Assembly (NCBI GenBank): GCA_965228855.1
Contig: CBDDIJ010000002.1
Span: forward strand, 736,001-800,000
Reading direction: 5' to 3'
From: Candidatus Obscuribacterales bacterium
Lineage (GTDB): Bacteria; Cyanobacteriota; Vampirovibrionia; Obscuribacterales; Obscuribacteraceae
DNA: 64,000 nt
Shown here one piece after another: positions 18,813 through 46,965 of this stretch; positions within the stretch are counted from its first letter, which is position 1, and each line of letters starts with the position of its first letter. The notes below the pieces were generated by a model, which saw nothing but the letters and a program-made list of their open reading frames with translations, was not told the DNA's origin and did no database searches. Position numbers and translations under genes: made by a program.

Positions 18813-19047
18813 CTACTATATACCGAGGTAGTACACAGCCTCCCGAATACCAGTCACAGCAATGTTTTCAGGATTTCTTATTTATAGTCCGCCCTGAAAT
18901 CGGTTGCTTTGGCTATCGTACGATGACGGTTTTGCCGAAATGCGTCATTGTGGCGTAGACAAAATCACCAAGCGGTTTACGTCTGATACCCAAATCACCT
19001 CGCCTGAAACCATTTCGCGCAAAACGTATTCCTAAGTTCTATAGTAG
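18813..19047. repeat. Repeat element copy A (CTACTATA 18813; 50-bp palindrome 18911-18960; TATAGTAG 19040)
   Basis: GGCTA-TCGTACG-ATGAC-N16-GTCAT-TGTGGCG-TAGAC; gaps 90 and 79 bp. Confidence 0.9.
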
Positions 19048-19071
19048 ACAGATTTGGTATATACTCGAAGC

Positions 19072-21228
19072 ATGAGTGGACAACGAGAGCCTCGGAAACG
19101 CAAGACGGTTCACATTAGTGAACAGGTTGAGCTCGTTTGCGCCGAAGACCGCGACAAGCGTACGCCTTTGCTGTCCAGTTTAAACTCAGCCAGTCAACTC
19201 ACTGAAGAAGAGAAAAACGATCCGCTGGTCGGGACCGTTCTTGCGGCTAAATACGAGATCCACGCGCTCTGTGGGCGGGGCGGCATGGGCATCGTTTACA
19301 AGGCACAGCATTTCGATTTGAAGCGCTATGTCGCGGTGAAAGTTCTCCACAAGCACCTTTTGAGCCACCAGGGCATATCTGATCGTTTCCGACTCTCGGC
19401 TCAGGCGGCACACGCCCTGCGGCACCCCAACCTGGTTTCGGTGACCGACTTCGGCTATACGGAAGAGGGACAGTTCTTCCTCGCCATGGATTATGTGATG
19501 GGCGAAACCCTGACCAGGAAACTGAAACGGGAACAGGAGCTATCAATAGACTCCTTCTTCAAAATCTTTTCTCAAGTGCTCGCCGGTCTCAAGTTCTGCC
19601 ACCAGAAGGGAATTGTGCACCGCGACATCAAGCCAAGCAACATTCTGATCACAGACAAAGAGATTAAACCGGACAGCATAAAGCTAGTGGACTTCGGCAT
19701 CGCGAAAGTTCTTCCTGAAAGCGAATCTTCCATCGATCACCTGACTCAAACAGGCGAGTTGCTCGGAAGCCCGCTCTACATGAGCCCGGAGCAGTGCCGT
19801 GGCGCGGACATCGATGCGCGGACGGATCTCTACTCGCTCGGCTGCGTAATGTTCGAGTCGCTGAGCGGCAAACCACCGTTTCAAGGAAAAAGTGCGATTG
19901 AAACATTGATGATGCAATGTTCGCAACCAACCCCGACATTGTACGAAGCAACCGGCGATGCGCAGCTCACCGAGCAGCTCGACGCGTTTATCAAAAAAGC
20001 GATGAGCAAGGATCGCGAAGATCGCTTTCACAGCGCAGAGGAAATGGAAGCTGCGCTGATGAGCATACAGCGGTTTCTTCACCTGCCAAAAATTGCCCGA
20101 CAACGTTTGACTCAACCCCCCCAGACTGGTACTGGAACTCCCTCGATTCAAGCCGCTCCGAAACCGTCGAAGCAAAAGATCGGTTTGGTCAGCATTGCAT
20201 TCTTGACGCTCTTTGCTGGAACCGTTTTTGCTGTGGCAGGCAAAGACTCGATCGTGCGAACCTATCTGAGCGCGAACCATTCGGACAAGACCGAAGCCAG
20301 ACAACAAGCTCTGGATACAATCAAACTTGGTGTGGTGGAGCGAAAAGAAGGCAACTTGAGCGCATCGAGAAAGCGACTCGAACGGGCGGGTTTGGAAACG
20401 GCGAGGGTGTTCGGACCAAACAGCGTGGAGTATCTGAAAGCGCAAACGGAGCTCGCTGCCACGGACATCGCGCAGGTCGAAGCTAGTGGCAATCTGCTCG
20501 CCGACGGTAAGCCGAACCCACTGTACCGGTTGCCTGAAGCAATTCTTCAGCGGTCACTCGAAGGTCTGCAGCGCGTTCGAAAAACTTTGAAGGACGATGG
20601 CACGGACGCTAATGAGTTGGAAGCGCAAGCGACCTTCCACCTCGCTCACATTTACGTCCAGGAGGGTGCTTTCGACAAAGCGAGAAAGCTTTACGAAAAG
20701 GGCTTTGCCCTGGTTAACGCAAACGTCTCAATGGGCAAAACCAACGCCTCCGACTGGTTCTACCGTGACTATGCCGACTTCCTGTGGCGAACCGGGCGAG
20801 AGCGCGAAGCCGCGAAGCTGGAGATGACTTTTCATCTTGATCCATGGGAGGCAAAACTGGCTTCAGAAGCTCCTTTGACGACAACAGACTTGAACGGCTT
20901 CTGGTCTGAACATAACATAGTGGCTCAGTTTTACGAGAAAAACGGAAAGGTGTTTGGTTCACACTGTGTGGTAGCGAAAAATGGGACTCGCATTGATGGC
21001 ACCATTGACGACACCACTCCTACAATTGAGGGAACGATCGAGAATGGCATTTTCAGAGGCACGGTTAAAAGCACTTACGGCGCCCGGTTTCTCGTGAACA
21101 TAGTTCGCATCGACAAATATTTAGTTTGGAAATTGGTTAAAACCGAATCAGCGGGAGAGTCCTACTTGCCACCATCAGCGGTGATGACGGCAAGCCAAGC
21201 TCCCAGAAGCACAGGTGGTTCGAAGTAG
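19072..21228 (+). CDS. Hanks-type Ser/Thr kinase with TM helix and TPR-like region
   Basis: GRGGMG, VAVK, HRDIKPSN, DFG, GSPLYMSPE. Confidence 0.92.
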   Translation: MSGQREPRKRKTVHISEQVELVCAEDRDKRTPLLSSLNSASQLTEEEKNDPLVGTVLAAKYEIHALCGRGGMGIVYKAQHFDLKRYVAVKVLHKHLLSHQGISDRFRLSAQAAHALRHPNLVSVTDFGYTEEGQFFLAMDYVMGETLTRKLKREQELSIDSFFKIFSQVLAGLKFCHQKGIVHRDIKPSNILITDKEIKPDSIKLVDFGIAKVLPESESSIDHLTQTGELLGSPLYMSPEQCRGADIDARTDLYSLGCVMFESLSGKPPFQGKSAIETLMMQCSQPTPTLYEATGDAQLTEQLDAFIKKAMSKDREDRFHSAEEMEAALMSIQRFLHLPKIARQRLTQPPQTGTGTPSIQAAPKPSKQKIGLVSIAFLTLFAGTVFAVAGKDSIVRTYLSANHSDKTEARQQALDTIKLGVVERKEGNLSASRKRLERAGLETARVFGPNSVEYLKAQTELAATDIAQVEASGNLLADGKPNPLYRLPEAILQRSLEGLQRVRKTLKDDGTDANELEAQATFHLAHIYVQEGAFDKARKLYEKGFALVNANVSMGKTNASDWFYRDYADFLWRTGREREAAKLEMTFHLDPWEAKLASEAPLTTTDLNGFWSEHNIVAQFYEKNGKVFGSHCVVAKNGTRIDGTIDDTTPTIEGTIENGIFRGTVKSTYGARFLVNIVRIDKYLVWKLVKTESAGESYLPPSAVMTASQAPRSTGGSK

Positions 21229-21278
21229 ACGTTTCAAAGACATCAACAAGGCGATCCGGCGTCCTGAAAGGCAATTGA

Positions 21279-23984
21279 TTGAACGAGAGAAAAAACTTTT
21301 GCCTATTGGCTTCGCCGTCCGTCGGGCAACTTTGCCTGGCGATCGCGTGTCTGGTCGGCTTGATTGGCGCCTCTTTGTATTTTCACACGTCGGCTTGTTC
21401 GAAAAATCCAGCGGCGTTCACAGACCATGTTGTGACAATAGACCTTGACGGACTCAAGCCCAACGAGTTGGAGCAGGTCACGCTCGATTGGACCGGCTCA
21501 GAACAACCAGCGTCTGCAGTACTTGTGCATCGTCTCCCAGAGTCGAATTCCTTCGCGGGTCTGGTTCCACCTAATGGGAAATTGCGACTCACGCTTCCGG
21601 ATTCTGTAAGGTCCAAACTGAATTCGATTAAGGTGACTGAGCGGGGAAAACCAGCTATGCGCCTCGATCTAACGAAGCCAACCGACCATGTTTTAGAAAC
21701 TCACACCGGCAGACTAACACAACTCTGTCAGACCGAGACTATCTATCCGACCAGCGCAGTGGTTGCAAACCAGCTATGGCTGTGGTTTTCCCTTGCACTG
21801 CTTCTCGCCGCAGCCGCCCTGCTTCTCCGCCAAGACAAGCTCCGACGACTCGCTGCCGGAACACTGCTTAGTGAGGCAAGCCGCCCACCAAGCCACCGAA
21901 CGGGCTGGTTTATCCTTGGCTTTTCAATTACCGCAGTCGCGATCGCCACTCTAGAAATCAAACAGCCACTATTCTTCCTGCAAGATGATAACTACATCCA
22001 GTTTCTCCCAGTGATTCTCCAGGGCTGCAAAAGCGCATTCAGCGGCGACTTACCGTTGTACAATCCGCTGCAGCTCCTCGGTGCTCCAACCGCCAGCATC
22101 GGCACATATGCACTTACATATCCAGGCACTTACATCGCTTATTTTCTTGCCTGCCTAATAAAGGCGCCTGAAGCCACTCTCGACGCATTTGCGATCCTAC
22201 ATTTAGTTTCTGCATATGCCGTGATGTATCTACTCCTCATCGACTCACGAGTACGCGGTTCCTTGAGTGCGTGCGGAGCGTTTAGCTATGCGCTTTCCGG
22301 CTTTTTTCTTATCGCCGGACGTTCCTGGTACTACATGCTTCCCGTGGCAGCCTGGGCACCACTTATGGTGCTTATCACAAACCGGTTATTGCGTAAGCCC
22401 TGCGGTCTATCCTGGCTTATTATCACCGCTCTGGCCGTTGGCATGTTCTTCCATTCCGGCAATGCCCAGATGTGGTTTTACACCATAATGCTTTGTGCGA
22501 TAACGTTAATCGCAGGCTGCGGTTTAAAACTCATTGGAGTGAAACGATTAATAGCCGCTCTGCCTGCCGTGATCGCAGGACTTGGAATCGCGTTTCCACT
22601 TCTCTACTTCCAGTTTGTTGAAACCGAAAGCGTCTGGCGACATCACGATCCCGGCGATATCTCCGGTGTCTCGCTCCTCCACATGCTGCTTCCACTGGGA
22701 GAGATTTTTGCGCGAGAGGAAACATTTGCGCCCGGTCGAACGTTTCCAGCTGAGATGTGCCACTTCGGAATTATCTTCGGAGCCCCAGTTCTGACGGCAC
22801 TGTTCTTGCTAATTGCGCGCATCAGTTTCTTCAAAACCGATAAAGCGCTTTTGCAGCAGGTGTTTAAACGAAACATCTGGCTGATCGCGTTTCTAATAGC
22901 CTTGCTGCTCGCGTGGGGCAGCCAGGGCGTTCTCTGGGACGCTGTTTCCTGGCTCCCCGTACTCAACAAATTTACTCAATCCGGAAAGCTACTCGCGTTT
23001 GTCACCATATTCGGTGTCATCGTTTCTGCCGTTCTGCTGGAGCGCTTGTTTTTACTTACACGAGTCCGCAAACGCACAGAGCGATTCGTTTTCCTGTCGG
23101 CTATCCTCGCGCTCTTCGTTCATTTAAACAACTGCCAGCACAGCTTTTACGACTTTGCCGATGCGCCGGCTTATCCCGCGCTGCCCACAAGGCTCCGGGA
23201 GAGCTGTGTAATTAAAAACGATATCAACGAAGCTGGAAGAATTTTCGCAATTTCTCCGGAACGGTCGAGAGAAAGGGGCTTCACAAATTCGCTGGCGCAA
23301 AACTTTCCGACATACTACAACGTCATATCGTTGAGCGGAATGGATCTACTCGTGTCCACGAACGCTTTGACCCTGGGCGTTTTAAAACGCCTGTACCAGG
23401 ACGCTCCCGACGTCGCGAGCAACTATGGCGTCCGCTGGATCGTTGTGCACGACGGCATGGTTAGACCGTCTTACGGCAACTCACCATGGTTGTGGCGATA
23501 CGAACAAGCTGACTTTTTCCAGACTCGCATCGCAAACACTCTACTTTCGAAGTGCGTCAAAGTCGCTGAACTCGAGCATGTAACTTTGTACGAAAATCCT
23601 GATGCGACGCCGATTGTGTTCTCCAAAGAGAAACCGGGAGCGGGTCTGCCAACCAAAATTTCGACTCGCGGACTGACAGTCGACGTCAACACTCTACAAA
23701 GCGGAGAAACTGTTATCGCTGCATTCATCGCCCGTCCCTGGCTCGTTGCGCGTCTGGACGGAAAACCGATTCCAATCATCGCAGACGCCTACGAGCGAGT
23801 CTCGATCAAACTGCCAAACACAGGTGCCGAGTTGCGAGTTGAGTATGAGCCGCCTCTGCTTCCGGCACTGGCCAGCGGTTTAGCCCTATTACTAATCGGC
23901 TGTCTTAGTGCTTTTGGTACGCGAAAGTGGGCGAATGGGGATGTTCAAATCAGTCAAGCAAATAAACTTGATGCGCCTGCCTGA
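21279..23984 (+). CDS. Large polytopic membrane protein, YfhO/GT-C-like
   Basis: QDDNYIQF..PLYNPLQLLGAP, many TM helices, C-terminal PW...LDGK...YEPP. Confidence 0.6.
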   Translation: MNERKNFCLLASPSVGQLCLAIACLVGLIGASLYFHTSACSKNPAAFTDHVVTIDLDGLKPNELEQVTLDWTGSEQPASAVLVHRLPESNSFAGLVPPNGKLRLTLPDSVRSKLNSIKVTERGKPAMRLDLTKPTDHVLETHTGRLTQLCQTETIYPTSAVVANQLWLWFSLALLLAAAALLLRQDKLRRLAAGTLLSEASRPPSHRTGWFILGFSITAVAIATLEIKQPLFFLQDDNYIQFLPVILQGCKSAFSGDLPLYNPLQLLGAPTASIGTYALTYPGTYIAYFLACLIKAPEATLDAFAILHLVSAYAVMYLLLIDSRVRGSLSACGAFSYALSGFFLIAGRSWYYMLPVAAWAPLMVLITNRLLRKPCGLSWLIITALAVGMFFHSGNAQMWFYTIMLCAITLIAGCGLKLIGVKRLIAALPAVIAGLGIAFPLLYFQFVETESVWRHHDPGDISGVSLLHMLLPLGEIFAREETFAPGRTFPAEMCHFGIIFGAPVLTALFLLIARISFFKTDKALLQQVFKRNIWLIAFLIALLLAWGSQGVLWDAVSWLPVLNKFTQSGKLLAFVTIFGVIVSAVLLERLFLLTRVRKRTERFVFLSAILALFVHLNNCQHSFYDFADAPAYPALPTRLRESCVIKNDINEAGRIFAISPERSRERGFTNSLAQNFPTYYNVISLSGMDLLVSTNALTLGVLKRLYQDAPDVASNYGVRWIVVHDGMVRPSYGNSPWLWRYEQADFFQTRIANTLLSKCVKVAELEHVTLYENPDATPIVFSKEKPGAGLPTKISTRGLTVDVNTLQSGETVIAAFIARPWLVARLDGKPIPIIADAYERVSIKLPNTGAELRVEYEPPLLPALASGLALLLIGCLSAFGTRKWANGDVQISQANKLDAPA

Positions 23985-24023
23985 GCCGCTCAACGACGAC
24001 CATACCTGAGAGGCTAGACTGAC

Positions 24024-24824
24024 CTACTTGATCGGCTGCATAAAGAGATCTTCGATATCGTCTTTCTTGATGTTACCATCCACCGAGAAGTATAAACTGG
24101 CTCTGTCTTTGGAACGATGATAGCCTTTGGGAATATCGAACAGTTTTGCATCGAGTGGAACATCTTTGATCTGGCGCGGTTCGATGATGACCTTCATAGG
24201 GCGCACACGCCCTTCTGAAGCTCGATTTCGCATTCTTTTCCTTCGGTGAATTTGCTTAGCGCCAATCGGCAAACCACGCTTAGGTGAGTAATCAACGGTC
24301 ATAAAACGGCACCACATCTGGTGCACCGCAACGGGGAGTTTCGCGGTGATGCAGGTGAACTCACCACCCTTGACGTCTTTTCCCCCAGCATCCTTTTCGC
24401 CTGTGAAACAGTCGAACTTCTTTCCTTTGCGATTGTTGGGAAGACTAACATCGGCTCCAGCCGAAACTTTAGCGAGCGGCATGGGCTGCATTCCTTCGCG
24501 CAACTCCTCGATGTAATCTTCGACCGGCATCACCAGAAAAACTTTGTTCTCAGGATTCATGAGTGTGGCTTTCGTCGGATTACTCACTAGCCAGAATGAA
24601 CTGCCAATCTGAGACTTGATGCGAAATCCGAGACTGCTGTAGGTGACCTCGGCCTTGCTTAGCATCTCTCCGTCGGACCAAACAGTGACCATAGTTTCGC
24701 TCGCCGGCGTTTTACCAGAAACTGCCGGGGTACCCTCCGCACGCGCATCAAGCGGCGCCAGGCTGTTTCCAACCAGAAGCGCAGCCATTGCACCAAGAAA
24801 TCGAGAACGCGCGCCGAGTTTCAT
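24024..24824 (-). CDS. Secreted hypothetical protein
   Basis: Signal peptide (ARA/EG), 266-aa ORF. Confidence 0.7.
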   Translation of the reverse strand: MKLGARSRFLGAMAALLVGNSLAPLDARAEGTPAVSGKTPASETMVTVWSDGEMLSKAEVTYSSLGFRIKSQIGSSFWLVSNPTKATLMNPENKVFLVMPVEDYIEELREGMQPMPLAKVSAGADVSLPNNRKGKKFDCFTGEKDAGGKDVKGGEFTCITAKLPVAVHQMWCRFMTVDYSPKRGLPIGAKQIHRRKRMRNRASEGRVRPMKVIIEPRQIKDVPLDAKLFDIPKGYHRSKDRASLYFSVDGNIKKDDIEDLFMQPIK

Positions 24825-26222: not shown

Positions 26223-26258
26223 CCAGTTGGCGACGCGGCAAACAGAAAGGAGTTCATC

Positions 26259-26588: not shown

Positions 26589-26675
26589 CAAGGCACGCGC
26601 CTCCAGGCTGAGGCAGCATCACCTGCTGCTTCGGCCGGAGCTCTGTTTTAACTCAGAACATCGAGGAGAAAGTAC

Positions 26676-28716: not shown

Positions 28717-28940
28717 CTACTATATTCTTTCGTTACTCCGATATCCCAAAAGGCTACGTGGAAGCGGCTTTAAGCCGATGCCTCCCCACTCCTCCCTTCT
28801 TTCCTACTATATTCTTTCGTTACTTCAACATCCCAAAAGACTACATGGAAGAGGCTTTGCGCCGATGTCTTCCATCAAGGTCGCGTGGTTGTCTATGAGG
28901 CGTTGACAGTTTTCACAAAAAGCGGCAATGCCTGATAGAC
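28717..28940. repeat. Repeat element copy B with duplicated left arm
   Basis: CTACTATA at 28717 and 28804; GTCTA-TGAGGCG-TTGAC-N16-GGCAA-TGCCTGA-TAGAC 28891-28940; gap 79. Confidence 0.9.
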
Positions 28941-29136
28941 AAACCCAGCACACCTTGGCGTCTCGGCGGCCTAACATCAGCCATTCCAACTCGTTAGATT
29001 GTTTCCCTCCACAAGGGAATTCCTCAAACAGCAACGCCTGCAATGGTTTGAACCGATTCGTTCACTTCTTGAAGGCTGAAATCGCAGCAAAACGGTTCCC
29101 CTGACAGCGGAACGGAATTAACGAGTTTCCGGCAAA

Positions 29137-29241
29137 CCCGTCATGCGTGGGGCGAGAGTTTCAAACTTGCGCGTCCCGTCATGTGTTGGGCGAGAGTTTC
29201 AAACTGCGCGTCCCATCATGCGGGGTTTCACACTTGCGCGT
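29137..29241. repeat. Degenerate tandem repeat (38, 37, 30 bp)
   Basis: CCCRTCATG...GTTTCAMAC(T)TGCGCGT x3. Confidence 0.85.
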
Positions 29242-29676
29242 CCCGCCTTGCGCAGCTCTCGCCAACCCGATTGACCTTAAAAGGCGCTAAAAAGCAAAGT
29301 CCGGTTATCTCGAAGGAAAGCCCGATATTCCAAGGCCGCAGTCCCGCGAGCAACTCTGGACTACACTGCAGTTTCTCTTATCTTGACAATACTGAACTGG
29401 TCTTAACTTGTGATCTTGCAGCCTGAACAAACTAAAGTGAACTCAGCTTCTGACATCAACTTCACCGGTTTCTCACACCCACAGTCTTCCGCATCAACCC
29501 CGAATTTCCGCAGCAGTCTGTGCTCCGGAGAAGACCGTCAGCAGCGAGCGAAGGGCATTCCTAACCCATAATCCAGCAGAACGGATCATGAACGGATTGC
29601 CCGGATGGAACACGCGAAGCGCCTGAGTACAAGCGCGTGTTCTGCAACCCAAACTCAGGCAGATTGGATACACCTA

Positions 29677-31590: not shown

Positions 31591-31737
31591 CTACTATATT
31601 CTTTCGTATACATCAAGCCCCAAAACAGCGCCCCTGTAACAGTCTTCGACACCAGCCGTTTCGCCAACCCGCACAATATACGGGTTTGGCTACGAGAGAA
31701 TGACAGAATTTGCCAAAAGCGTCATTCTCTCATAGAC
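31591..31737. repeat. Repeat element copy C
   Basis: CTACTATA 31591; GGCTA-CGAGAGA-ATGAC-N16-GTCAT-TCTCTCA-TAGAC 31688-31737; gap 89. Confidence 0.9.
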
Positions 31738-31813
31738 AACAGCTCAGACCTCGTCAATCGAGAATCCCACGATGACCGAGAAGCGCGCGCGTGTGCTCGG
31801 AAGGCAATTTCTG

Positions 31814-35548: not shown

Positions 35549-37021
35549 ATGAGCCTTGCAATCAACCTCGAGTATCAACCTTACGTTCCGCTCTACAGGA
35601 GGCTTTCGGATGCCTTGAGGAAGGCGATTTTGGACGGGCGGTTGCGACACGGAGACGTTTTACCATCGACACGCGAACTGTCGGCGACGATGAAAGTTTC
35701 GAGAGCCACTGTGCTCAAAGCTTTTGACGATCTCGAAACGCAGGGATTCATCAAATCAGTACCGGGAAAAGGTCTATTCGTTCGCTACGCGCCCACTGTT
35801 GAAAAGGTTGTAGCAGATCAGTTCTCCCTGCAAAAACAACTGATCCTATCCGATTACGCTCACCGAGTATTAGCACTAAGAAAGCACGAGTCAATCGTGC
35901 ACATTCCGGCAACAAACTTCGGCGGTCCAACAGCTGACCTGAGTCCACTTCATGAATGGCGCCAGCTCTTATTTCGTTACTGTCGACGATCGTTTTTGTC
36001 TGAGTCCAGCGAGTTGACGTGTATTTCCGACGAGCTGGAGCCGTTTGGGTACGAACCGCTAAGACAGGCTCTGGCTGCCTATCTTCATCGCTCCAGAGCG
36101 ATCCGGTCCGCAGCAGATCAAATCGCTCTCTTTTCGACAAAACAGGCACGGCTCGAGTTGATAGCACGGATGCTTCTTGATGCAGGAGATCTGATCGCTT
36201 TCGAAGATCCCGGATACCCAGAAGCACGTCACCTTTTCTTGTCGCATGGAGTCCGCGTTTTAAGCGTGCCGATCGAAGCTGATGGTATCAACGTTGATTG
36301 GCTCGCACAAAAACATCTGCCCATCAAATTCGTTTACGTGACACCCTCTCATCAAGATCCAACCGGCGTGACAATGTCGATGGAAAAACGTTTCAAACTT
36401 CTCGAATGGGCTCGAACCACAGGCGCTTATATAATCGAAGACGACTACGATTGCGAGTATAGTCACGGCAAAAAATCGCTGCCCTCTCTAATGGGGATGG
36501 ACCGAAATGACAACGTGATCTATCTTGCTTCATTGTGGAAGGTTTTGTTTCAGGTAAATCGATTCGGTATTGTCGTCTTACCGCGAACATTGATACCAGC
36601 TGCGGTGCAAACCAAGTTACACATGGAGAGACACTTGCCTCTGTTAGATCAGCTGGTAATGACCGATTTCATCAACGAAGGTTTACTCGAGCGACATATT
36701 CGAAGAACTCAGCAACGCCTTGCCCGAAAACGGCAAATAATGATCTACGGGCTTACAAAGAACATGCAATCCTTTCTCACTGTTCCAAAGGAAACTGCTG
36801 GAATGCATCTTGTCGTAAGATTTTTCGAGGAGATATCAGAGACCGACATTGAGAATTCGGCGCGCGAATGCGGAATCACTCTTACTGGAACATCCGCCTA
36901 TTATGCCGAAGAAAAGCGCTGTCAGGGCGAATACATCATCCCGTTTTCAGGTGTTGATGAGACTTCTACCGAAGAGCTCGTCGCGAACTGGGCATTGCAG
37001 CTCAAGAGGCTGCAGCAATGA
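35549..37021 (+). CDS. MocR/GabR-family regulator (GntR wHTH + PLP domain)
   Basis: LPSTRELS..VSRATV, EDPGY, YVTPSHQDPTG, IEDDYD. Confidence 0.9.
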   Translation: MSLAINLEYQPYVPLYRRLSDALRKAILDGRLRHGDVLPSTRELSATMKVSRATVLKAFDDLETQGFIKSVPGKGLFVRYAPTVEKVVADQFSLQKQLILSDYAHRVLALRKHESIVHIPATNFGGPTADLSPLHEWRQLLFRYCRRSFLSESSELTCISDELEPFGYEPLRQALAAYLHRSRAIRSAADQIALFSTKQARLELIARMLLDAGDLIAFEDPGYPEARHLFLSHGVRVLSVPIEADGINVDWLAQKHLPIKFVYVTPSHQDPTGVTMSMEKRFKLLEWARTTGAYIIEDDYDCEYSHGKKSLPSLMGMDRNDNVIYLASLWKVLFQVNRFGIVVLPRTLIPAAVQTKLHMERHLPLLDQLVMTDFINEGLLERHIRRTQQRLARKRQIMIYGLTKNMQSFLTVPKETAGMHLVVRFFEEISETDIENSARECGITLTGTSAYYAEEKRCQGEYIIPFSGVDETSTEELVANWALQLKRLQQ

Positions 37022-38520
37022 CGAAAAAATCCGATGCGCCCAGCATGATGAGGATTGGTCATTCTGTCGTCCTACTGGATAGAACCGGCGGAGCGACACG
37101 ACAGCGACAATTGACCGATCAGATACGACGGGCAATCATAGACGGGGCCATTGAGCCTGGCTCCAAATTACCGTCCGTGCGTGAATTTTCTGCCGGACTC
37201 GACGTTTCTCGCTCTACTGTAGTCCGCTGTTTCGAGGAGCTTGCCAGTCAGGGCTATATTGCCACTTCTATTGGTTTTGGAACTGTCGTGTGCAAAAGGC
37301 TTCCGGGCGAGCTATCAGCCCAAGAGATTGCACCACCTGTGGTGCCGAATCAAGAACCCGTCATAAACAAAGTCGGCCTTTCACGCTATGCCTCAAGAAT
37401 TCTCAACGTCAAAGAGGTCGGCTCGCCAAAAGCGGCCCGAGCCTTGAATCCCGGGGGACCGCCGTCCGATGCCGCACCGATTCGAAAATGGCGCGAACTT
37501 TTGGAAAGGCACTGCCGACATAACCTCAATCAGGCAGAATGCGGAACTGATCCTTTTGGGTTGCCACCATTGCGCGAAGCCTACGCGGCCTACTTGATGC
37601 GCAAGCGTGCGCTCCAATGCAGGGCTGAACAGATAATCGTATTCAGTGCTCGGGAGTTACGGCTCGATCTAATCGCACGCATTCTTCTTCAAGAGGGCGA
37701 TGCCGTTGCTGTCGAGAACCCGGGCTATCCAGCCGTCCGACAACGGCTGATTGCAAACGGAGCTCGCGTTGTGCCAATCCCCGTCGATCACCAGGGTCTT
37801 AAGGTCGACTGCCTGGAGATGATGCAAGAACGCGTAAAACTTGTCTATGTGACGCCATCGCACCACGAGCCGACCGGAGCTGTGATGCCCCTGTCACGCC
37901 GACGCAAACTGATTGAATGGGCGAAACAGAACTCCGCGTTTATTGTCGAAGACGATTACGACTCAGAGTTTCGATATGATGGACGTCCCATTCCCTCACT
38001 GCAGGGGCTGGACGACACTGATTCCGTGATTCATCTGTCATGCCTCTGGAAGATCCTCTCACCTGTTTCCAAAATAGGATTTCTGACGATTCCCAATTGT
38101 TTAATCGATGTGTTTCAAGCAGCTAAATCGCTGGTAGAGAGAGATATGCCATTAATCGACCAGTTCGTCCTCACAGATTTCATCAACGAGGGACATCTGG
38201 AACGTCAGATCGCCGCAAACCGAAAAGTCTATGCTACAAGACGCAAACTTCTGGTGGAGGCGCTAAGGAAGCATGTCGGCAGCCTCTCGATTGCCAGTGA
38301 AAGTGCCGGCATGGACTTATTTGTGAAATTTCAAGCCGGTGCGGATGATTCGTTGCTAGTCACGATGGCTGAACAAGCCGGTTTCAAGCTCATTCCCGCC
38401 GGTCCGTACTATTTCGCCGGCGGCGGACAGAACGAGTTTGTCATTCCGTTTTCTCATCTGGACGAGAAACACATCGAATCAATCATTCAAAAGTTCGGCG
38501 CCTCACTCAAAGCTATTTGA
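37018..38520 (+). CDS. MocR/GabR-family regulator, tandem paralog
   Basis: LPSVREFS..VSRSTV, ENPGY, YVTPSHHEPTG, VEDDYDSEF; ATGA overlap. Confidence 0.9.
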   Translation: MTKKSDAPSMMRIGHSVVLLDRTGGATRQRQLTDQIRRAIIDGAIEPGSKLPSVREFSAGLDVSRSTVVRCFEELASQGYIATSIGFGTVVCKRLPGELSAQEIAPPVVPNQEPVINKVGLSRYASRILNVKEVGSPKAARALNPGGPPSDAAPIRKWRELLERHCRHNLNQAECGTDPFGLPPLREAYAAYLMRKRALQCRAEQIIVFSARELRLDLIARILLQEGDAVAVENPGYPAVRQRLIANGARVVPIPVDHQGLKVDCLEMMQERVKLVYVTPSHHEPTGAVMPLSRRRKLIEWAKQNSAFIVEDDYDSEFRYDGRPIPSLQGLDDTDSVIHLSCLWKILSPVSKIGFLTIPNCLIDVFQAAKSLVERDMPLIDQFVLTDFINEGHLERQIAANRKVYATRRKLLVEALRKHVGSLSIASESAGMDLFVKFQAGADDSLLVTMAEQAGFKLIPAGPYYFAGGGQNEFVIPFSHLDEKHIESIIQKFGASLKAI

Positions 38521-38710
38521 GAGGAATTCTATTCTTTCTACTACATCCTTCGTATTTTTTCTACTATATTCTATCAAATACATTCCCAACGTAATAGTAG
38601 AACCTGTGGACGTTTCGACTACTTCCTCACTCAGTCAAATCTCGTTTGGCTACGGGAGAGCGACGGATTTTCGAAAATCCGGCATCGCACCGTAGATAGT
38701 GTGTTAGGTG

Positions 38711-39673
38711 TCAAGCCAGAGTGCTGTTAAACCTGGAATCGAATGGTTGTTTCGAGCGATATACAGCGACCATCATACGGAGAAGTTTGCGTGAGGCGGC
38801 ACAAACAATTACTTTTCTGTTTTTTCCCTTTGCTGCCAGTCGTTTAGCGAATTCAGCCACTGGCGGATTAAACCGAGTGGCGGTAAGGGCGGCCATGTAC
38901 AACATGCTGCGGATCACTGGATTTCCCATCTTCGAAATTCTGGAACGTCCTCGGACTGAAGAACCGGACTCACGGATCATGGGATTCAGACCACAGAATG
39001 CTTCGATCTGGCGCAAGCTCGTAAACGAGTCCATCATCGACAGTTCTGAGAGAAACGTGAATGCTGTTCTCCAGCCGACGCCCTTAATCGTCTGGAGTAA
39101 TTTAGCGTTGCTTTTCAAAGCAGGATTCTCGGAGACCAGCGTCTTCGCCAGCTTTTCCAGTGTTTGAATTTCGTTGGTAATGAACTTCAACATACGCATC
39201 TGAGAGTCTAAAGCGCGCTGGTCCAGGCGTCCCGATTTCATTCGATTTGTGACTTGGGTTTTGGTTTTCTTTAGCGCAGCGAGCTCTCTACAAATGTCTC
39301 TCAGGGAGCGAATGTCAGGATCCATCGGAGACCAAGGAAGGGGCTCCATTTTAAAACAAAAGTCGGCGATGATTTCCGCATCGATTGCGTCGGTTTTTGA
39401 ACGTCTAAATTGGCTCTTGCCGAAGGCGTGTATCAGCGCTGGATTTACCACGCTGACTCGATAGCCAAGTTTGTGTAGAAACTCCGCAAGGGGCTCCCAG
39501 AGCTTCCCCGTAGCTTCCATGCAAAAGTGAACATCCTTACCGGATGCTTGAATCCATTTGACTATTCTCTTGAACCCAGCTGGGTTATTGCTGACGTGCA
39601 GCTTCGAATTCTTCCTGTCCTGGCGATGGCAGTCTAACGTCTCCTTCGATACGTCGATTCCAACAAAGATCAT
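38711..39673 (-). CDS. IS110 recombinase/transposase
   Basis: DEDD: GIDVSK, MEATG, KTDAIDA; C-terminal IKGVG, RESGSS..RISKMG. Confidence 0.95.
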   Translation of the reverse strand: MIFVGIDVSKETLDCHRQDRKNSKLHVSNNPAGFKRIVKWIQASGKDVHFCMEATGKLWEPLAEFLHKLGYRVSVVNPALIHAFGKSQFRRSKTDAIDAEIIADFCFKMEPLPWSPMDPDIRSLRDICRELAALKKTKTQVTNRMKSGRLDQRALDSQMRMLKFITNEIQTLEKLAKTLVSENPALKSNAKLLQTIKGVGWRTAFTFLSELSMMDSFTSLRQIEAFCGLNPMIRESGSSVRGRSRISKMGNPVIRSMLYMAALTATRFNPPVAEFAKRLAAKGKNRKVIVCAASRKLLRMMVAVYRSKQPFDSRFNSTLA

Positions 39674-39714
39674 TGCTCCTACCTCCTGTTGCTGGTTCGC
39701 TTGGACGCGGATAG

Positions 39715-39937
39715 AATCTTGTCAGGGCGAGCCTTGTTTACACGTGCTAAATCGGTCAGGATTTGCTGTAGATAGTGTTCAGCCTTAGAGGACAAGACAG
39801 GAGCGGAAGTCCGAAATCTACGCCTCTGACTTTCTAGCCGGAGACAAAATACTGGTTTCTTCCGCTCCTCTATCCTCGCGTCCTCGGATAGCCTTGCCGA
39901 CTGCACGCTCCTGGTCAACAGCAACGTACCAGTCAAC
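39715..39937 (-). ncRNA. Predicted IS110 bridge RNA (ends approximate)
   Basis: 5' hairpin 39896-39937; target loop closed by 11-bp stem 39799-39809/39859-39869; guides match target and donor. Confidence 0.8.
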
Positions 39938-40104
39938 ATCTAACGTACAAGACAAAAACCAACCGTCAAAAAACGCAGATCCGCGAAACGCCCAACTATC
40001 GAATCTTTTCACCAAAGTGCATCTAGTACCCCATATAGTAGCAAGGGCTGAGAAAAGACGAGGGGGCGCATGGGTAGCGACTCCTCGTCCTAAAGTGAAG
40101 CGGT

Positions 40105-40719: not shown

Positions 40720-40724
40720 GGCTG

Positions 40725-41519: not shown

Positions 41520-41671
41520 TCTTAAATTCCTTCTGCTTGTTTCAGATTCCAGCACCCGCACACGCGGGTACCAGCACGCAGTGGCTCTTGAAGAAGAGGG
41601 GGATAGGCGACCTCAGCCGCCTATCCCCGGTGTGCCCGAGCCAGGACACATCCAGCCTCAAGAAGCTGGAG

Positions 41672-42088
41672 TTAGCGCTTCGGCATCCGCACAGGCAGCC
41701 AGGTGCGGCCCTTCCAGGGCACTTCACCGACCAGCGTGGCGCCGCCAAAGGCGAGCGAGAACGTCACCAGAGCAGCACCGAACCCGCTCGTGACAGAGAG
41801 CGAGCCAATCAGCAGCGACGCCAGTCCGACGCCCAGCCACGAGCCCAGGATGAAGCACAGATACTGAACGACGCGTCCGGTCTGCATGAGTCCGAGAACC
41901 GCGCGCAGAGCGATCGTGACGCCGAGACCGAAGAACATGCCCGTGACGCCGATGATGGCGGCAGCCATGATACCGGTCAGCAGACTGCCGGCTGACACGC
42001 CGACGCCGAGCAGCAGCGTGATTGCGGCAGCCGCGATGAAGTAGCCGTTCATCAGGAGGAAGTGTCGGCTCTTGAATGCGTGACCCAT
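41672..42088 (-). CDS. Small multi-TM membrane protein
   Basis: Hydrophobic, Gly-rich; RBS AAGGA. Confidence 0.7.
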   Translation of the reverse strand: MGHAFKSRHFLLMNGYFIAAAAITLLLGVGVSAGSLLTGIMAAAIIGVTGMFFGLGVTIALRAVLGLMQTGRVVQYLCFILGSWLGVGLASLLIGSLSVTSGFGAALVTFSLAFGGATLVGEVPWKGRTWLPVRMPKR

Positions 42089-42115
42089 TGGGTTTCCTTA
42101 GTTGTTGAAGGTTGC

Positions 42116-42652
42116 TCAGGCTTGCGGAACCGTCAGATTGACTCCGTTGAGAGACACAGCCTTGGCAACAAATTCACCGATTCGCTGACGAATGGTATCG
42201 TCCGCGATGGCACCGCTCTGAAAAGCGGTCCTGTCCGCATAAACGAAACGTGGAATGACGAGGCAACGAAAGTCCAACATCAGACTGTTTGCGAGCCCCA
42301 TCACAGACATGTAACTAGACCGACCGCCGGCAGCGCAGAGAAAACCAACCGTCTTTTCCGTCCAGCCTTCGCCGGTCAGTTCGACAAGGTTTTTCGCCGC
42401 AGCGCCGACGTCGTAGTTATAAATCGGCACGGCAAGAAGGATGCACGAAGCTTCCCTGACTTTATCCGTGACCTTTTTGACGCTAGACCGACTGTAAGCA
42501 GCCGCACCGTCGCACAGGGGAAGTTTGACCTTTCGCAGGTCGAGAAACTCCACTACCTGACCGGCAGCCACCAGTTGCGCTTCGGTCTCACGAGCAAGCA
42601 GATAGCTTTTGCTATCGGGGTTGAGGCTGGTGCTTATTACCAGGTAGGACAT
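42116..42652 (-). CDS. NADPH-dependent FMN reductase family
   Basis: ISTSLNPDSKS, PIYNY..AKNLVE, AGG. Confidence 0.88.
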   Translation of the reverse strand: MSYLVISTSLNPDSKSYLLARETEAQLVAAGQVVEFLDLRKVKLPLCDGAAAYSRSSVKKVTDKVREASCILLAVPIYNYDVGAAAKNLVELTGEGWTEKTVGFLCAAGGRSSYMSVMGLANSLMLDFRCLVIPRFVYADRTAFQSGAIADDTIRQRIGEFVAKAVSLNGVNLTVPQA

Positions 42653-43518
42653 TCGTTTGTTTCCTTTCCGCTCTTAATCTGTGTCTTGAACGCGTCGAGG
42701 ACGGTCATCTCTCAGATTACCCGAAGGCAATCAAAGATTTGCAAAAACGAGATAGGCGGGGTTTAGAAGTCTTGAGACACAAAGATATAAGAGCGTAAGA
42801 ACTGTGCGACTTTAGAGCAACAGAGACCTCCGATTCCCACTTGAAAAGCCATTTGGTTCAAAACCGTTCACGCCGGCCGTCATGCCCGGAAACAAGGTCT
42901 TTGTTTCTGTTTCAGGCGCTCTGCGCGAATTAGCGCTAGGAATATTACGCGCGATTAACTCGGAAGCAACTAGCCTCGCTAGCGGACGTCTCCTCAAGGC
43001 TATGACACTTGCTAGATTAACCTGCGCTAACCTCGCAAAGCATTTCCGCGCGGAATTAATCTGTCCTTTGCTTGTTCAGGAACTAAATATTCAAAGGCTT
43101 AACCTCGAAAGCTTTCCTAAACGCTCAATGAGTAGGTGTTTCGGGCGCGTGGTTATTTTATTAAACGCATTTGATTTTTGATACATAAGACCCCTAGGTT
43201 GAAAAGTATCATCGCGTTTCAATTTCACTCAGGAATTTCCAAACCAACCCACACCCGCAACTGTAAGCCTGGTTTCGAGCTACTCGAATTGCGCATCTGC
43301 GTAAACCAGCATGTACGTCCGTGAGTTGCCTGGCTGTTTCTGCGTGAACGATGTTCGTTCGGTGGGATGGGTCCTGTCGCACGTCGCCTCTCGAAGTCGT
43401 TTCGATTGGCGGTTCTTACCCATGCGCGTGAAACCGGTTGCTTCAGCTTCCGGGAGATTCGCGTGCGTTTTTTAACCCGTGGACGCAATCGCGCCACACA
43501 AACACAAAGGTGATTACC

Positions 43519-44559
43519 ATGGCTATGACTCGCACTCTCGACGGTTTCGTTCCGGCTTACCTGCTCCAGCAGGCCGCCATCCTGAACCCCAACAACACCT
43601 CGCTGATCGACTCGATCGGCATCACCCAGCGCCTCTCCATCGCTGGTCGCACTCCCCTGCATCCGGCTCTGCGCCTGGCTGTTCTGGCTCCCGGCCAGGG
43701 CGACCGCCGCATCTTCGACTGCAAGGGCCTGGAGCGTCTCCCGGGCGACAAGGCTCGTCACGAGGGCGACGGCGAATACGCCGCTTTCCCGCTCGTCAAC
43801 GACGCCTACCAGTTCCACGGTGACGTTCGCCGCTTCCTGCTCGAGGTCCTCAAGCGCAACTCGCTCGACGGCAAGGGTCTCGACCTGATCGGCAGCTGCA
43901 ACTACGGCAAGGGCTACAACAACGCGTTCTTCAACCAGCGCCAGATGGTCTACGGCAACGGTGACGGCGTCATCTTCGCCAAGTTCATCATCCGCTCGGT
44001 CATCGGTCACGAGATGGCGCACGGCGTGACGCACCACACCTCCGGCCTGGAATACCAGGACGAGAGCGGTGCGCTCAACGAGCACTTCTCGGACGTCATC
44101 GGCGTTCTGGTCGACCAGTTCTGCGACAACGTCACCTCGGCCGCGCACCACTGGCTGGTCGGCCCGGGCCTCTTCACCGACCAGGTGAAGGGCAAGGCGC
44201 TGCGCAGCATGATCGAGCCGGGCACCGCCTACGACGATCCGAAGCTCGGCAAGGACCGTCAGCCGGCGCACATGAAGGACAAGTTCGAGGGCTGGGCCGA
44301 CAACGGCGGCGTGCACATCAACTCGGGCATCCCGAACCGCGCCTTCGCACTGTTCGCCAAGGCCGTCGGCGGCTACGCTTTCGAGCGCCCGCTCGCGATC
44401 TGGTACGCCACCAACTGCGGCGAAGACCGTGTCGGCGCCAACGCTTCCTTCCAGGACTTCGCGGACAAGACCATGGTGCACTGCGCCACGATCGCTCCCC
44501 GCCAGAAGAACAACCTGAAGGAAGCCTGGGGTGAAGTCGGCATCACCGTCGCCGGCTAA
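43519..44559 (+). CDS. M4 (protealysin-like) metallopeptidase, paralog of 6399-7415
   Basis: FVPAYLL propeptide, HEMAHGV, GALNEHFSD, DNGGVHINSGIPN. Confidence 0.92.
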   Translation: MAMTRTLDGFVPAYLLQQAAILNPNNTSLIDSIGITQRLSIAGRTPLHPALRLAVLAPGQGDRRIFDCKGLERLPGDKARHEGDGEYAAFPLVNDAYQFHGDVRRFLLEVLKRNSLDGKGLDLIGSCNYGKGYNNAFFNQRQMVYGNGDGVIFAKFIIRSVIGHEMAHGVTHHTSGLEYQDESGALNEHFSDVIGVLVDQFCDNVTSAAHHWLVGPGLFTDQVKGKALRSMIEPGTAYDDPKLGKDRQPAHMKDKFEGWADNGGVHINSGIPNRAFALFAKAVGGYAFERPLAIWYATNCGEDRVGANASFQDFADKTMVHCATIAPRQKNNLKEAWGEVGITVAG

Positions 44560-44577
44560 CGCTCGCGACTGACTGCG

Positions 44578-44617
44578 AGAGGGGCAAAGTCCAAACGGAC
44601 CTAGCCCCTCTCCTTTT
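44578..44617 (+). terminator. Intrinsic terminator
   Basis: GAGAGGGGC...GCCCCTCTC followed by CTTTT. Confidence 0.75.
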
Positions 44618-44628
44618 CCCGAATTAGT

Positions 44629-44777
44629 CTACTATAGAATACAGTCTAAGCATATCATCCAAAAGCCCCGCCCAGTGATGGTTTAAGCCCCTCCAGACCC
44701 AAGTACTCTGCGCCAAAAATCTGATTTGTCTATCCACCAATGACGCAATTGCGAAATTCCGTCGCTCTCCGATAGAC
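44629..44777. repeat. Repeat element copy E
   Basis: CTACTATA 44629; GTCTA-TCCACCA-ATGAC-N16-GTCGC-TCTCCGA-TAGAC 44728-44777; gap 91. Confidence 0.9.
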
Positions 44778-44946
44778 AGACTCAAAGGCATTGGATAAAG
44801 AGACTGAGGGGCAATAAGCGGTGCACCGGTTGTAAATTGGCGAATTATTTTTCCGCCCGACAACCAGCTAGCGAAACCAAGAAAACGGCACTAGGACACC
44901 AGTGAACTGCTTTCTTGAAGAGAGAATCTGGTTCGCCCACACCGAC

Positions 44947-45624
44947 TTACAAAAATTCCTTCGGCAGCGAATCAAACTGCCCCGACAGCGTGAAGCGATC
45001 ATCCTTCGGATGCTCACCAAGCGCATCGGACAACCTCTCATCCGGCAGCGGTTTGTACGTGACTCGAAAAGAATTTTTCTCAGCAGAGTCTTTCAGATAA
45101 GTGGCGTAGTCATCGCGAATTTGCTCGACTTCCGGATGCTCCAAACCCAATTTCGCGGATTTGATATACATCGCTTGCTGGTAGAAAACGCCCGCCTCAT
45201 CCACCTTCCGCCAGGCATGATAGAGCAACGCGGCGTTGTGCGTAATCGTTCCCGTATCCAAATGGTCCTGCCCAAGACGACGGCGATAGAGTTGCAAAAG
45301 CCTCATCATTACAGGCGCTCCATAATGATATCTGCGGCTACGATAGTAAATTTGCGAAAGAAGCTCCAGCGTAATGCCAACACGTTGGTCGTCTCGGTCA
45401 TACGATTCAGCAATCTCTAAAGCACGAAGACCCGCATGTTCAGCCTCGTCCAGCTTATCGTCCTTAATACACTGTTCAGTCTCAAGAACGTACTTCTGCC
45501 AACGAGCATTGCGCTGCTCCTCGGTTTCATCCACGAAAAAAGGGGCGGCGTCACCATCGCCTGGACGTGAGCCAGCAGGTGAAACACCTTTGTATTCGCC
45601 GGACTGACTTGTGACCTCACTCAT
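44947..45624 (-). CDS. TPR protein (kinesin-light-chain-like repeats)
   Basis: LGQDHLDTG...YQQAM..K..LGLEHPEV. Confidence 0.8.
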   Translation of the reverse strand: MSEVTSQSGEYKGVSPAGSRPGDGDAAPFFVDETEEQRNARWQKYVLETEQCIKDDKLDEAEHAGLRALEIAESYDRDDQRVGITLELLSQIYYRSRRYHYGAPVMMRLLQLYRRRLGQDHLDTGTITHNAALLYHAWRKVDEAGVFYQQAMYIKSAKLGLEHPEVEQIRDDYATYLKDSAEKNSFRVTYKPLPDERLSDALGEHPKDDRFTLSGQFDSLPKEFL

Positions 45625-46206
45625 TTATAGCCGCATTTCTTTGTTTGCCAAAACCGCACACACCGGATGAACAATCCGATTCCGCCCGAAGGCTCGGATA
45701 TTTTACAGCAACAATCGTCGCCAGTTCGTATTCGAAACACCAACAAAGAAATCCAGGAGTAAGATTCCAAGAGATGCATCAATCCCATCCTAACATCCGC
45801 CACATAGCGCGACACCTTGGCAAGTAAACCGATCGTGGCGTCCCGCTTGCCTTTCCAGCCTCTTAGACTCAAGACTCATATTTTTACGCGGTCTTGATTA
45901 CGATGGTCCCAAAGGCGCATTATCGAGAAATCGTTTGTCCCATGCTTGCTTTCACAGGATTGTCTTAGACCACCTATTCCAGCCTGTTTCCAAACTCGTG
46001 CACCTCAACAAGATTGTGAGCCGAGTCAAACCGCATGTGCAACGAAAACGAACCTGCGAAACAGCCAAGAACGTCGCTCCGTCCCGTTACTTGCTGGTTT
46101 TCGCCTGCCCGCCTCAAAGCACCGGTTCGCATTCCAAAGTCGGCAGACCTATCCGTCCGCCGCCCCGTGGCCCAAAAACCACGAGACTGAATCAAGGAGC
46201 CAAATC

Positions 46207-46584
46207 ATGTTCTGGACACTTGCTATTGTCCTCGTGCTCGCCGCCCTCGCAATCGTCGAAAACCGACGACTGAACAAGAAGGACGAGGCCGTGCTTCGAC
46301 ACACCATCGAAGTCAACCTCGGCATTCTGAAAGGCGAGCTCGAAAGATTGGCGCCGCTTGCGAAGTCTCTGCCCGCCGACGATCAAGCCGAAGCCGACAA
46401 ACTCCTGTCGCGCTCCCGCACAATCGTCTCCGACGTCGAACCCCGCATTGCGACTGCCCCTCGCCGCGAGCTAGGAAGAATCCTGCGCGACGTCTTTTCG
46501 GCAATGAATACATCCACCGAGCTGCACAAGCTGCTCGCGAAGTATTCACTCGTGCCGACAATCGAAGACATGCCTCTCGAGTAA
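46207..46584 (+). CDS. Small membrane-anchored helical protein
   Basis: RBS AAGGAG, N-terminal TM. Confidence 0.7.
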   Translation: MFWTLAIVLVLAALAIVENRRLNKKDEAVLRHTIEVNLGILKGELERLAPLAKSLPADDQAEADKLLSRSRTIVSDVEPRIATAPRRELGRILRDVFSAMNTSTELHKLLAKYSLVPTIEDMPLE

Positions 46585-46727
46585 CAGTCCGAGCCTGCCT
46601 TCGAGCCTGAGTCTTTGGTAGCTTGTCGTCAAACGATGACGCCTGGCAATCACTACTCTCAAACATCAACCAAAGACGGTAGCGGGGTGGGAAGCCATTC
46701 TCACCCTTGCTACTTTTCCTTCAACAT

Positions 46728-46965
46728 CTACTATACGCAGGCGTGATTCACCCTTCACCGAAAGGACGAAGTCAGCGGGGTTTCAACTGTTTTCGCTTCG
46801 TAGGTGGTCAGCAAAAACAAGGGTTTGGCTACGACAAAGCGACGGTTTCTTCGAATTTCGTCTACGTGTCGTAGACACGATGCGTCCTCTCCACTTCCAG
46901 AACAGACTAAAAGCTCGCTCCTGAAACCCTTTTGAGTAATTCAGTATCCCGATACTATCTAGTAG
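46728..46965. repeat. Repeat element copy F
   Basis: CTACTATA 46728; GGCTA-CGACAAA-GCGAC-N16-GTCTA-CGTGTCG-TAGAC 46827-46876; TCTAGTAG 46958; gaps 91 and 81. Confidence 0.9.

Follow-up and report, generated by a model that had tools for sequence, protein, structure and literature searches.

Intergenic palindrome-box repeats around the origin of a Candidatus Obscuribacterales genome and their probable PLD-HTH partner gene

The window considered here is a 64,000-nucleotide stretch of a Candidatus Obscuribacterales bacterium (positions 736001-800000 of contig C2 in the 8.2-Mb source genome, G000; the sister genome is G007), which carries six copies, A to F, of an intergenic repeat together with the dnaN-dnaA genes that mark oriC at the centre-right of a domain dense in such copies. 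Each copy consists of a 52-bp double palindrome and, at a fixed distance on one side or both, an 8-bp outward-reading TAGTAG box (Table 1). On balance these palindrome-spacer-box units are best read as gene-less copies of a repeat that elsewhere on the same contig brackets a gene for a nuclease-helix-turn-helix (PLD-HTH) protein, which likely binds the palindrome and likely cuts outside the box, an activity that would drive copying. The repeats are real and are not gene promoters, and they very likely belong to a gene-repeat system of an undescribed kind.

The six palindromes of the window are centred at 18935.5, 28915.5, 31712.5, 38672.5, 44752.5 and 46851.5, and their boxes lie 115 and 104 (A), 104 (B), 114 (C), 104 (D), 116 (E), and 116 and 106 bp (F) from the centre. 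The initial annotation of this DNA had expressed the same intervals as gaps 25 bp shorter (90/79, 79, 89, 79, 91 and 91/81), and all of the boxes are where it placed them. For element D it gave gaps of 79 and 80; the left one is read directly, and the right one (box at 105 from the centre) is true only when the 1.25-kb IS110 element that splits this palindrome is taken out. Its description of two gap classes, and of boxes on both sides of A, D and F, holds for the window copies, but genome-wide there are four classes and two-sided units are a minority (62 of 211). Its further statement that the intervening sequence is not conserved fares less well, since the spacer contains weak motifs anchored on the box, namely AAA (-48..-46), TTT (-28..-25) and TAC(G/T) (-10..-7), and is retained in 40 homologous arm pairs at distant loci.

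Table 1. Coordinates of the repeat elements and associated features (window numbering unless a contig is named)
Feature	Position	Strand	Evidence
Element A left box, TATAGTAG read outward, class 116	18813..18820	-	
Element A palindrome (52 bp, double): palindromic half-sites of ~17 bp at a spacing of 33 bp	18910..18961	.	
Element A right box, class 104	19040..19047	+	
Element B left arm: duplicated in tandem with a period of 87 bp; boxes at 28717-28724 and 28804-28811	28717..28873	-	
Element B palindrome, without right box	28890..28941	.	
Element C left box, class 116 (114)	31591..31598	-	
Element C palindrome, without right box	31687..31738	.	
Element D left box, class 104	38561..38568	-	
Element D palindrome, right foot interrupted by IS110; whole in G007	38647..38696	.	
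IS110-family element within the element D palindrome; transposase 38711-39673	38697..39949	-	Pfam matches
Element D right box	40034..40041	+	
Element E left box, class 116	44629..44636	-	
Element E palindrome, without right box	44727..44778	.	
Element F left box, class 116	46728..46735	-	
Element F palindrome	46826..46877	.	
Element F right box, second base variant, class 104 (106)	46958..46965	+	
dnaN-dnaA, marks oriC at centre-right of the element-dense domain	55208..58609	-	
Palindrome-inserted IS110 sites	window 38697-39949; G000 C2 ~198k, 859k, 988k, 1121k; C5 ~861k, 1462k		

A weight matrix built from the six window palindromes gives 211 matches in the whole genome and 0 in the reversed genome. 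Outward boxes concentrate at fixed distances from these palindromes, and inward boxes have no such pile-up. With a flank counted as boxed when an outward box lies 88-132 bp away and has no more than one mismatch, 241 of 422 flanks are boxed; both boxes are present in 62 elements, one in 117 and none in 32 (n = 211). The distances fall into classes with means of 93.1 (n = 11), 104.4 (n = 111), 115.7 (n = 105) and 126.6 bp (n = 14), i.e. a step of ~11.3 bp, and the best period among those tried is ~11.5, with a phase coherence of 0.81 as against 0.75 at 10.5. The genome-wide gap histogram that had been proposed as a check is not flat, and identical distance classes are found in a third strain (metagenome loci). 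This four-step ladder supports the earlier suggestion that proteins at the two motifs contact each other on one face of the DNA. The ~11.3-bp step is close to the in vivo helical repeat of lac repressor loops, for which one study gives fitted values of 11.1-11.6 bp/turn in wild-type, HU-lacking and H-NS-lacking cells (11.6 in the wild type) and 12.4 in the absence of IHF (PMC1919473). Each half of the 52-mer itself tends to a ~17-bp palindrome, with the half-sites 33 bp apart. Because arm-to-arm complementarity exceeds that of shuffled sequence by a modest amount (2722 pairs versus 2540 +/- 29 over 158 loci), the palindrome is more easily read as a pair of operators than as a hairpin under selection.

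All 211 palindromes are intergenic according to our own gene calls. They occupy 158 gaps, of which 68 are convergent, 77 tandem and 13 divergent, compared to 77, 208 and 111 in the regional background (domain gaps of at least 200 bp, n = 396). The copies are strongly clustered: 179 are on C2, and 175 lie within a 1.05-Mb domain round oriC that makes up 13% of the genome. Among 41 genomes searched the exact palindrome pattern occurs in G000 and G007 only; with one mismatch allowed it is also present on two small contigs of G006, among eight genomes of the genus. Candidatus Obscuribacterales accounts for 55 of 57 palindrome-carrying loci among the matches listed, and the search of viral contigs gave 0 matches. 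Two loci (L022 and L023) lie on one Acidobacteria-titled contig that is 93% identical to G000 C2:562-565k; to judge from this identity the contig is probably mis-binned rather than the result of a transfer.

At 74 of the 241 boxed flanks there is a tandem duplication whose second copy begins +4..+26 from the first base of the box, with a peak at +13..+20, compared to 5 of 600 control intergenic midpoints; such box-edge duplications recur in two further strains with a peak in the +10..+29 bins, in part as shared ancestral events. The other edge of the duplications is variable, 22 of the 74 tracts beginning 21-40 bp past the centre, which is the far foot of the palindrome. Compared over 68 duplicate pairs, the sequence short of the box is ~90% identical, the box itself 99-100%, positions +8..+17 41-57% and those farther out ~30%. 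In 40 matched G000-G007 flank pairs, some of which are tandem paralogs, the corresponding figures are ~82% for the spacer, ~99% for the box and 50-75% for the bases directly beyond, substitutions being clustered in the first ~10 nt past the box. Within the window the left arm of element B (repeat family D4, 70 nt, 86%) is a typical box-bounded duplication, and the element A locus is a triple tandem array in G007 with its junction 6-8 nt outside the left box. The 40 homologous arm pairs at distant loci agree in their distance class and have the box, one spacer and the entire palindrome in common; identity drops from 95% at the last base of the box to 22% at the next base, and the opposite arm is related in 7 of 40. 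The copied unit, near or far, is thus the palindrome plus one arm plus the box. The box is a breakpoint, the fixed outer edge of the duplications and of the distant copies, and it is the reserve proposal of the initial annotation, that boxes are element termini, which the duplication edges and the ending of homology at the box support. Outside the breakpoint, 75 of 241 boxes abut the terminator of an oncoming gene, against 11 of 240 controls; the terminator tract mostly starts 5-11 nt past the box.

The candidate partner was found among the 16 genes that have an element on both sides, of which 15 were scanned for domains, the remaining one being an IS110. One of the 15, at G000:C2:103074-103847 and so outside the window, has a PLD-like domain, and it lies in the order box-palindrome-gene-palindrome-box over 1.27 kb from box to box; a second, longer PLD-like match is at C2:134903, and related genes are inside two other element slots. 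The focal protein of 257 residues has a PLD-like (HKD) nuclease domain, a CxxC linker and an XRE helix-turn-helix (HTH). The motif HxK(x4)D(x6)GSxN is present, with H107, K109, D114 and G121-S122-L123-N124 invariant in 25 of 25 aligned members, 21 of which give a PLDc_2 match (E<=1e-4). One HxK motif per chain suggests that the protein would act as a dimer with one active site. A structure model (pLDDT 87) has an alpha/beta N-domain and an all-helical C-domain, and the nearest solved HTHs are those of HipB and the controller (C) proteins. PADLOC and NCBIfam gave no full-length match, only domain-level ones (MkoC over 109 of 1136 positions; HipB-like at 31 bits against a cut-off of 71.65); ESM Atlas matches were HTH look-alikes only, under 0.9; and the phage collection gave no match to the protein, one viral contig having the PLD part only.

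Between the focal gene and its ortholog in G007 there are 25 synonymous and 5 non-synonymous codon changes, and on this comparison the gene is under purifying selection. G000 has five PLD-HTH paralogs, and the origin domain contains all of them. In a search of 200 other genomes of the class, matches are present in 26 of 47 from the same family and in 0 of 153 others; 11 of the 26 have full-length matches and the others the PLD part only. Nearly all of the best 150 family representatives (50% clustering) match the whole profile, and 357 representatives match at E<=1e-30. In the loci viewed the gene stands alone between its own palindromes, with neither HipA nor restriction-modification genes beside it. 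Just upstream of several of these genes there is an AT-rich motif (L230:1503-1530, the same in L224, L238 and L242), which is possibly a common promoter or repressor site.

The pairing of gene and palindrome extends across the family; the palindrome sequences differ between genes, and the half-site spacing stays constant at 32-33 bp. A flanking double palindrome, defined as a score of at least 14 of 18, accompanies 11 of 17 full-length family genes and 16 of 300 control genes. The trait known from REP/RAYT systems, in which the gene of the enzyme lies between copies of its repeat and further copies without a gene are scattered through intergenic DNA, is present here with PLD-HTH as the enzyme. 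The palindromes of three G000 paralogs are dispersed in 46, 15 and 10-13 copies; in other genomes the gene's own palindrome has 5 copies in G101, 4 in G211, 16 in G010, 5 in G005 and 5 in G165, the reversed controls giving 0. Each palindrome is specific to its genome, with no match in the other 4-5 genomes of each search except in G136, and a G000 paralog that has lost the HKD motif has no flanking palindrome. In G101, which belongs to another genus and has a different palindrome, all four gene-less copies have an outward TATAGTA on one side, at 79, 82, 89 and 91 bp, an outward TAGTA[GA] is found on 6 of 10 flanks, and the five copies and both genes are all within 400 kb of dnaA. Gene cassettes differ even between strains that are ~94% alike, two being found in G000 only and one in G007 only, with a plain element at the slot in the other strain.

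The 46-copy family, tied to the C2:1043k paralog, forms tandem arrays of 102-bp period and up to 13 units (C2:1488793-1490018 and ten other clusters) that have a CRISPR-like look and in some cases lie inside or beside first-family elements. A third half-site on one flank is seen in G010 (L271-L285) and in the G000 C2:1002k family, and an operator array can thus have three members. A palindrome subtype of the focal family marked by GTCAAT (23 of the 211 G000 copies; L259) makes arrays of 72-73 bp that are mostly unboxed; its own gene, 54% identical to the focal gene, is in G007 and not in G000.

A mechanism can be proposed. Two HTH dimers would sit on the two half-sites, which at 33 bp are three turns apart; the variable HTH would read the operators, and the conserved PLD head would form a dimer with one active site, as described for Nuc and BfiI (PMC2853115). 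By looping or wrapping in whole turns of ~11.3 bp the DNA would bring the box within reach of the PLD dimer, which may nick the inward-reading strand within ~10 nt outside the box and remain joined to the 5' end through a phosphohistidine. Such an intermediate, resolvable by a DNA 3'-OH, is described in PMC2475615 for BfiI, a PLD nuclease able to join DNA in this way in vitro; HUH enzymes follow the same hold-and-hand-on logic with tyrosine (PMC8266576), and an engineered fusion of the BmrI PLD domain with the C.BclI HTH cuts near its operator (PMC2094064). Displacement synthesis would then proceed inward toward the palindrome, tending to stop at its far foot, and rejoining at a variable point would yield local tandem arrays as well as palindrome-arm-box copies elsewhere; an inward nick, displacement synthesis and variable rejoining would together leave one fixed and one variable edge. 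Distant copies would often land just past the terminator of a convergent gene, and repeated cutting and repair might scramble the ~10 nt beyond the box. The broader description is that of a REP/RAYT-like partnership of gene and repeat in which the enzyme is a phosphohistidine nuclease that reaches its box by looping and cuts close to it; this we consider somewhat better than evenly supported. Whether the system deserves the name of a new class of mobile DNA is a more tentative matter, to which we give slightly less than an even chance: a histidine transposase whose exchangeable HTH binds an operator pair, whose PLD domain nicks beside a TAGTAG 8-11 turns away, and which rejoins through phosphohistidine and spreads near terminators round the origin, with at least 150 members, each apparently with its own operator pair.

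A number of observations weigh against the copying of the repeat by the PLD-HTH protein. The evidence for binding, cutting and mobility is comparative throughout, and these activities are what we infer from it. The focal protein scores 24.6 bits with PLDc_2, below the Pfam cut-off of 27, and a sequence search of its PLD N-domain against solved structures gave no relative. Six of the 17 family genes score under 14 for a flanking palindrome, and the G165 pattern matches G136 once, with 3 mismatches. The box is not universal: outward TAGTA[GA] is on 2 of 8 flanks in G211, 2 of 10 in G005, 1 of 10 in G165 and 1 of 30 in G010, it is not evident beside the other palindrome families of G000, and the GTCAAT subtype has boxes on 3 of 35 outer flanks. 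At the 62 two-box units no target-site duplication of k = 2-9 occurs above chance (exact matches 2, 0, 1, 0, 0, 0, 0 versus 3.65, 0.37, 0.16 and ~0 expected), although such duplications could have been erased by the hot spot past the box. Strain comparisons gave no clean pair of filled and empty sites, the best candidate resembling a deletion; the contigs of two read runs contained no box-to-box joint, a comparison without weight. Nor does the proposed mechanism account for a second arm that has its own box, or for the mutations in the 10 nt that follow a box.

Of the other explanations, the one that survives best is that the PLD-HTH protein only binds palindromes, for autoregulation or the marking of its cassette, and that the box is read by a machine of the host (RNA polymerase, primase, or a nuclease of recombination or repair) which breaks or mis-patches the DNA there and in this way causes the duplications. 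The same box stands beside unrelated palindromes of distant PLD-HTH clades, which a host factor would fit as well as a conserved PLD domain would; the substitutions in the first ~10 nt after the box are like those of a low-fidelity primer, and in several PLD-HTH families tandem amplification takes place with no box. A sequence read by a general host factor is nonetheless hard to reconcile with the rarity of the box elsewhere (42-58 copies per genome in six congeners, as against 292 and 204 in the pair of genomes that carry the repeat), with its lack of enrichment upstream of genes, with a GC skew that indicates a single origin, and with the invariance of the nuclease motif in all 25 members, and we regard this explanation as unlikely.

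More doubtful still is the reading in which the repeats are domesticated sites that organise the origin region, following the logic of matS/MatP or SBS/SlmA, with a protein that wraps or bridges them and with mobility a thing of the past. The crowding of 175 of the 211 copies into the origin domain, the like clustering in G101, the synteny of copies between strains ~92-94% alike and the purifying selection on the gene would all suit such a role. Against this, the exact palindrome is confined, among eight genomes of the genus, to G000, G007 and the two small G006 contigs, cassettes are gained and lost between close strains, and boxes are hot spots of rearrangement. Because all of the palindrome families and all five genes cluster round oriC, the clustering looks like insertion bias.

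The main idea of the initial annotation was that the boxes are -10 elements of activator-dependent promoters; as gene promoters they are rejected. A version in which outward promoters, mostly antisense, are switched by the palindrome protein, duplications being a by-product of transcription starts, is about as improbable as the organising sites. It would explain the helical ladder of distances, the position of the duplication edge (+9..+26) just beyond the would-be start site, and the 56 boxes directed into gene starts. The orientation of the boxes speaks against it: they occur at 152 of the 213 flanks directed toward the 3' end of a gene, as against 56 of the 103 directed toward a gene start, divergent gaps are avoided (13 of 158 loci versus 111 of 396), and the 75 boxes that abut an oncoming terminator point the same way. 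Host upstream regions are enriched in TATAAT (26.5 versus 5.7 per 100 kb) and not in TATAGTAG (1.2 versus 2.6), nor is TAGTAG enriched upstream of host genes. In a sigma-70 -10 element the first T and A (-12T, -11A) are conserved most. Over 259 boxes the TAGTAG positions are conserved in 248-257, and the leading T (231) and leading A (220) are the least conserved, so that the pattern is the reverse of a sigma-70 -10 element; the gene flanked is moreover that of a nuclease, and the homology between distant copies stops at the box. An intrinsic terminator is rejected as well, as the palindrome has T on its 5' side and A on its 3' side, which lengthen the stem.

Other candidate agents were set aside. 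A RAYT/IS200 partner (PF01797) gave 0 matches in G000 and G007, the same search being positive in G002, G005 and 6 of 14 controls, and a serine recombinase (PF00239) likewise gave 0 in G000 and G007, with 7 in G001 and positives in 12 of 14 controls; tyrosine recombinases are present in 5 of 5 genomes searched. GC content at third codon positions (GC3) is 0.60-0.79 over ~1 Mb round oriC (G000 C2:50k-1.1M) and 0.55 elsewhere, and the first ~65 kb of C2, at 0.85, may be foreign. That the elements raise GC3 by gene conversion is rejected, orthologs in element-free congeners being equal (0.64 versus 0.65 in the domain, 0.55 versus 0.55 outside); the values round oriC and elsewhere are matched by the orthologs in three distant congeners, which indicates a genus-wide high-GC origin domain. 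An Hfr-like conjugative element as the cause is also rejected, as the relaxase and type IV secretion genes found are on the likely contaminant contig C4 (141 of 216 listed proteins scanned). C4 looks like contamination, with an AT-rich eukaryote-like start followed by an alphaproteobacterial-type conjugative element, mercury and arsenic resistance and housekeeping genes.

Copying of the repeat by the PLD-HTH protein would share a number of general features with known systems and differ from each. REP/BIME/REPIN sequences with their TnpA-REP (RAYT) enzyme are, according to PMC8266576, likewise intergenic palindromic repeats in hundreds of copies, often tandem and biased to gene 3' ends, and REPtrons have a single nuclease gene between its own repeats, a repeat sequence that is lineage-specific for each enzyme, and IS110s that insert in the repeats. 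The enzyme here is a PLD-HTH protein in genomes (G000, G007) without an HUH/Y1 partner; in place of a 20-50-nt hairpin with a 5'-foot tetranucleotide, mostly GTAG, there is a 52-bp pair of operator-like half-sites, and the GTAG is within a box 93-127 bp (8-11 helical turns) from the centre, which no conserved hairpin follows. The enzymes BfiI, BmrI and Nuc, as described in PMC2475615, PMC2853115 and PMC2094064, have one HxK per chain and a separate DNA-binding domain, and they offer by analogy a precedent for two features supposed here, cutting outside the recognition site and a phosphohistidine resolvable by a DNA 3'-OH. Those are restriction or non-specific nucleases that cut within a few bases of their site, whereas the present protein has an XRE HTH after a CxxC linker, a gene that stands alone between palindromes in the loci viewed, and hundreds of sites in the host. 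HipB and the restriction-modification C proteins share the XRE-type HTH and the paired palindromic operators upstream of their own gene; they differ from the nuclease fusion described here, whose operators are scattered as a repeat family.

Two classes of transposable element may also be compared. Miniature elements (MITEs) of DDE insertion sequences are non-autonomous units with inverted terminal motifs, matched by a longer gene-bearing unit with the same ends. The likeness here is in gene-less units of ~220-260 bp with inverted end motifs and a longer gene unit with the same ends; unlike MITEs, these have no target-site duplication, a copied unit that is usually one-armed and a partner that is not a DDE transposase. 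Boxes of 8 bp at both ends, in the manner of terminal inverted repeats, are found in 62 of 211 elements only. IS91/ISCR elements and Helitrons likewise combine one fixed with one variable end, stop preferentially at a palindrome, and give rise to tandem and one-ended products. In the present case no HUH Y2/Rep partner turned up, a family for which no specific search was made, and the fixed end would be set by looping from a distant operator pair. Both of these rolling-circle groups are named in PMC8266576.

To our knowledge, prokaryotic transposition and site-specific recombination proceed by DDE/DEDD, tyrosine, serine or HUH chemistry. A search of the open-licence literature gave no description of a PLD/HKD-HTH protein as a repeat partner or of these motifs in this taxon, and no mobile element that uses a PLD nuclease. 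What is particular here is the combination of a PLD enzyme, a phased distal box and mapped breakpoints. If the proposal is true, it would give a second, unrelated answer to how REP-like repeats spread and reveal, in a non-photosynthetic relative of the cyanobacteria, a mode of DNA spread not described before. A fixed breakpoint, a copied unit with one arm and a looping ladder are recorded in the genome itself, which makes the proposal directly testable with one 257-residue protein and a 250-bp substrate. The family also provides a natural code, in which one catalytic head is shared by more than 150 divergent HTH variants; at least 10 of these are paired here to operators.

The repeat is itself a target. 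Two IS110-family elements (3 and 4 identical copies; proteins 52% alike) are all within the palindrome, each at its own fixed position, and the one in element D is a parasite of the repeat and not a component of it. With their targets known, these repeat-targeting IS110s should be useful for bridge-RNA work. Elsewhere in the window, the long gap to the right of element B (29137-29250) contains 3-4 copies of a ~26-31-bp repeat spaced 30-38 bp, and there are tandem paralog pairs at 8349-13902 and 35549-38520 (two M1 aminopeptidases and two MocR/GntR-aminotransferase regulators). An Rfam search of the window gave one tRNA and no other RNA family; on another contig, at G000 C3:724518-727973, 21 tRNA genes are packed into 3.5 kb, rare anticodons included.

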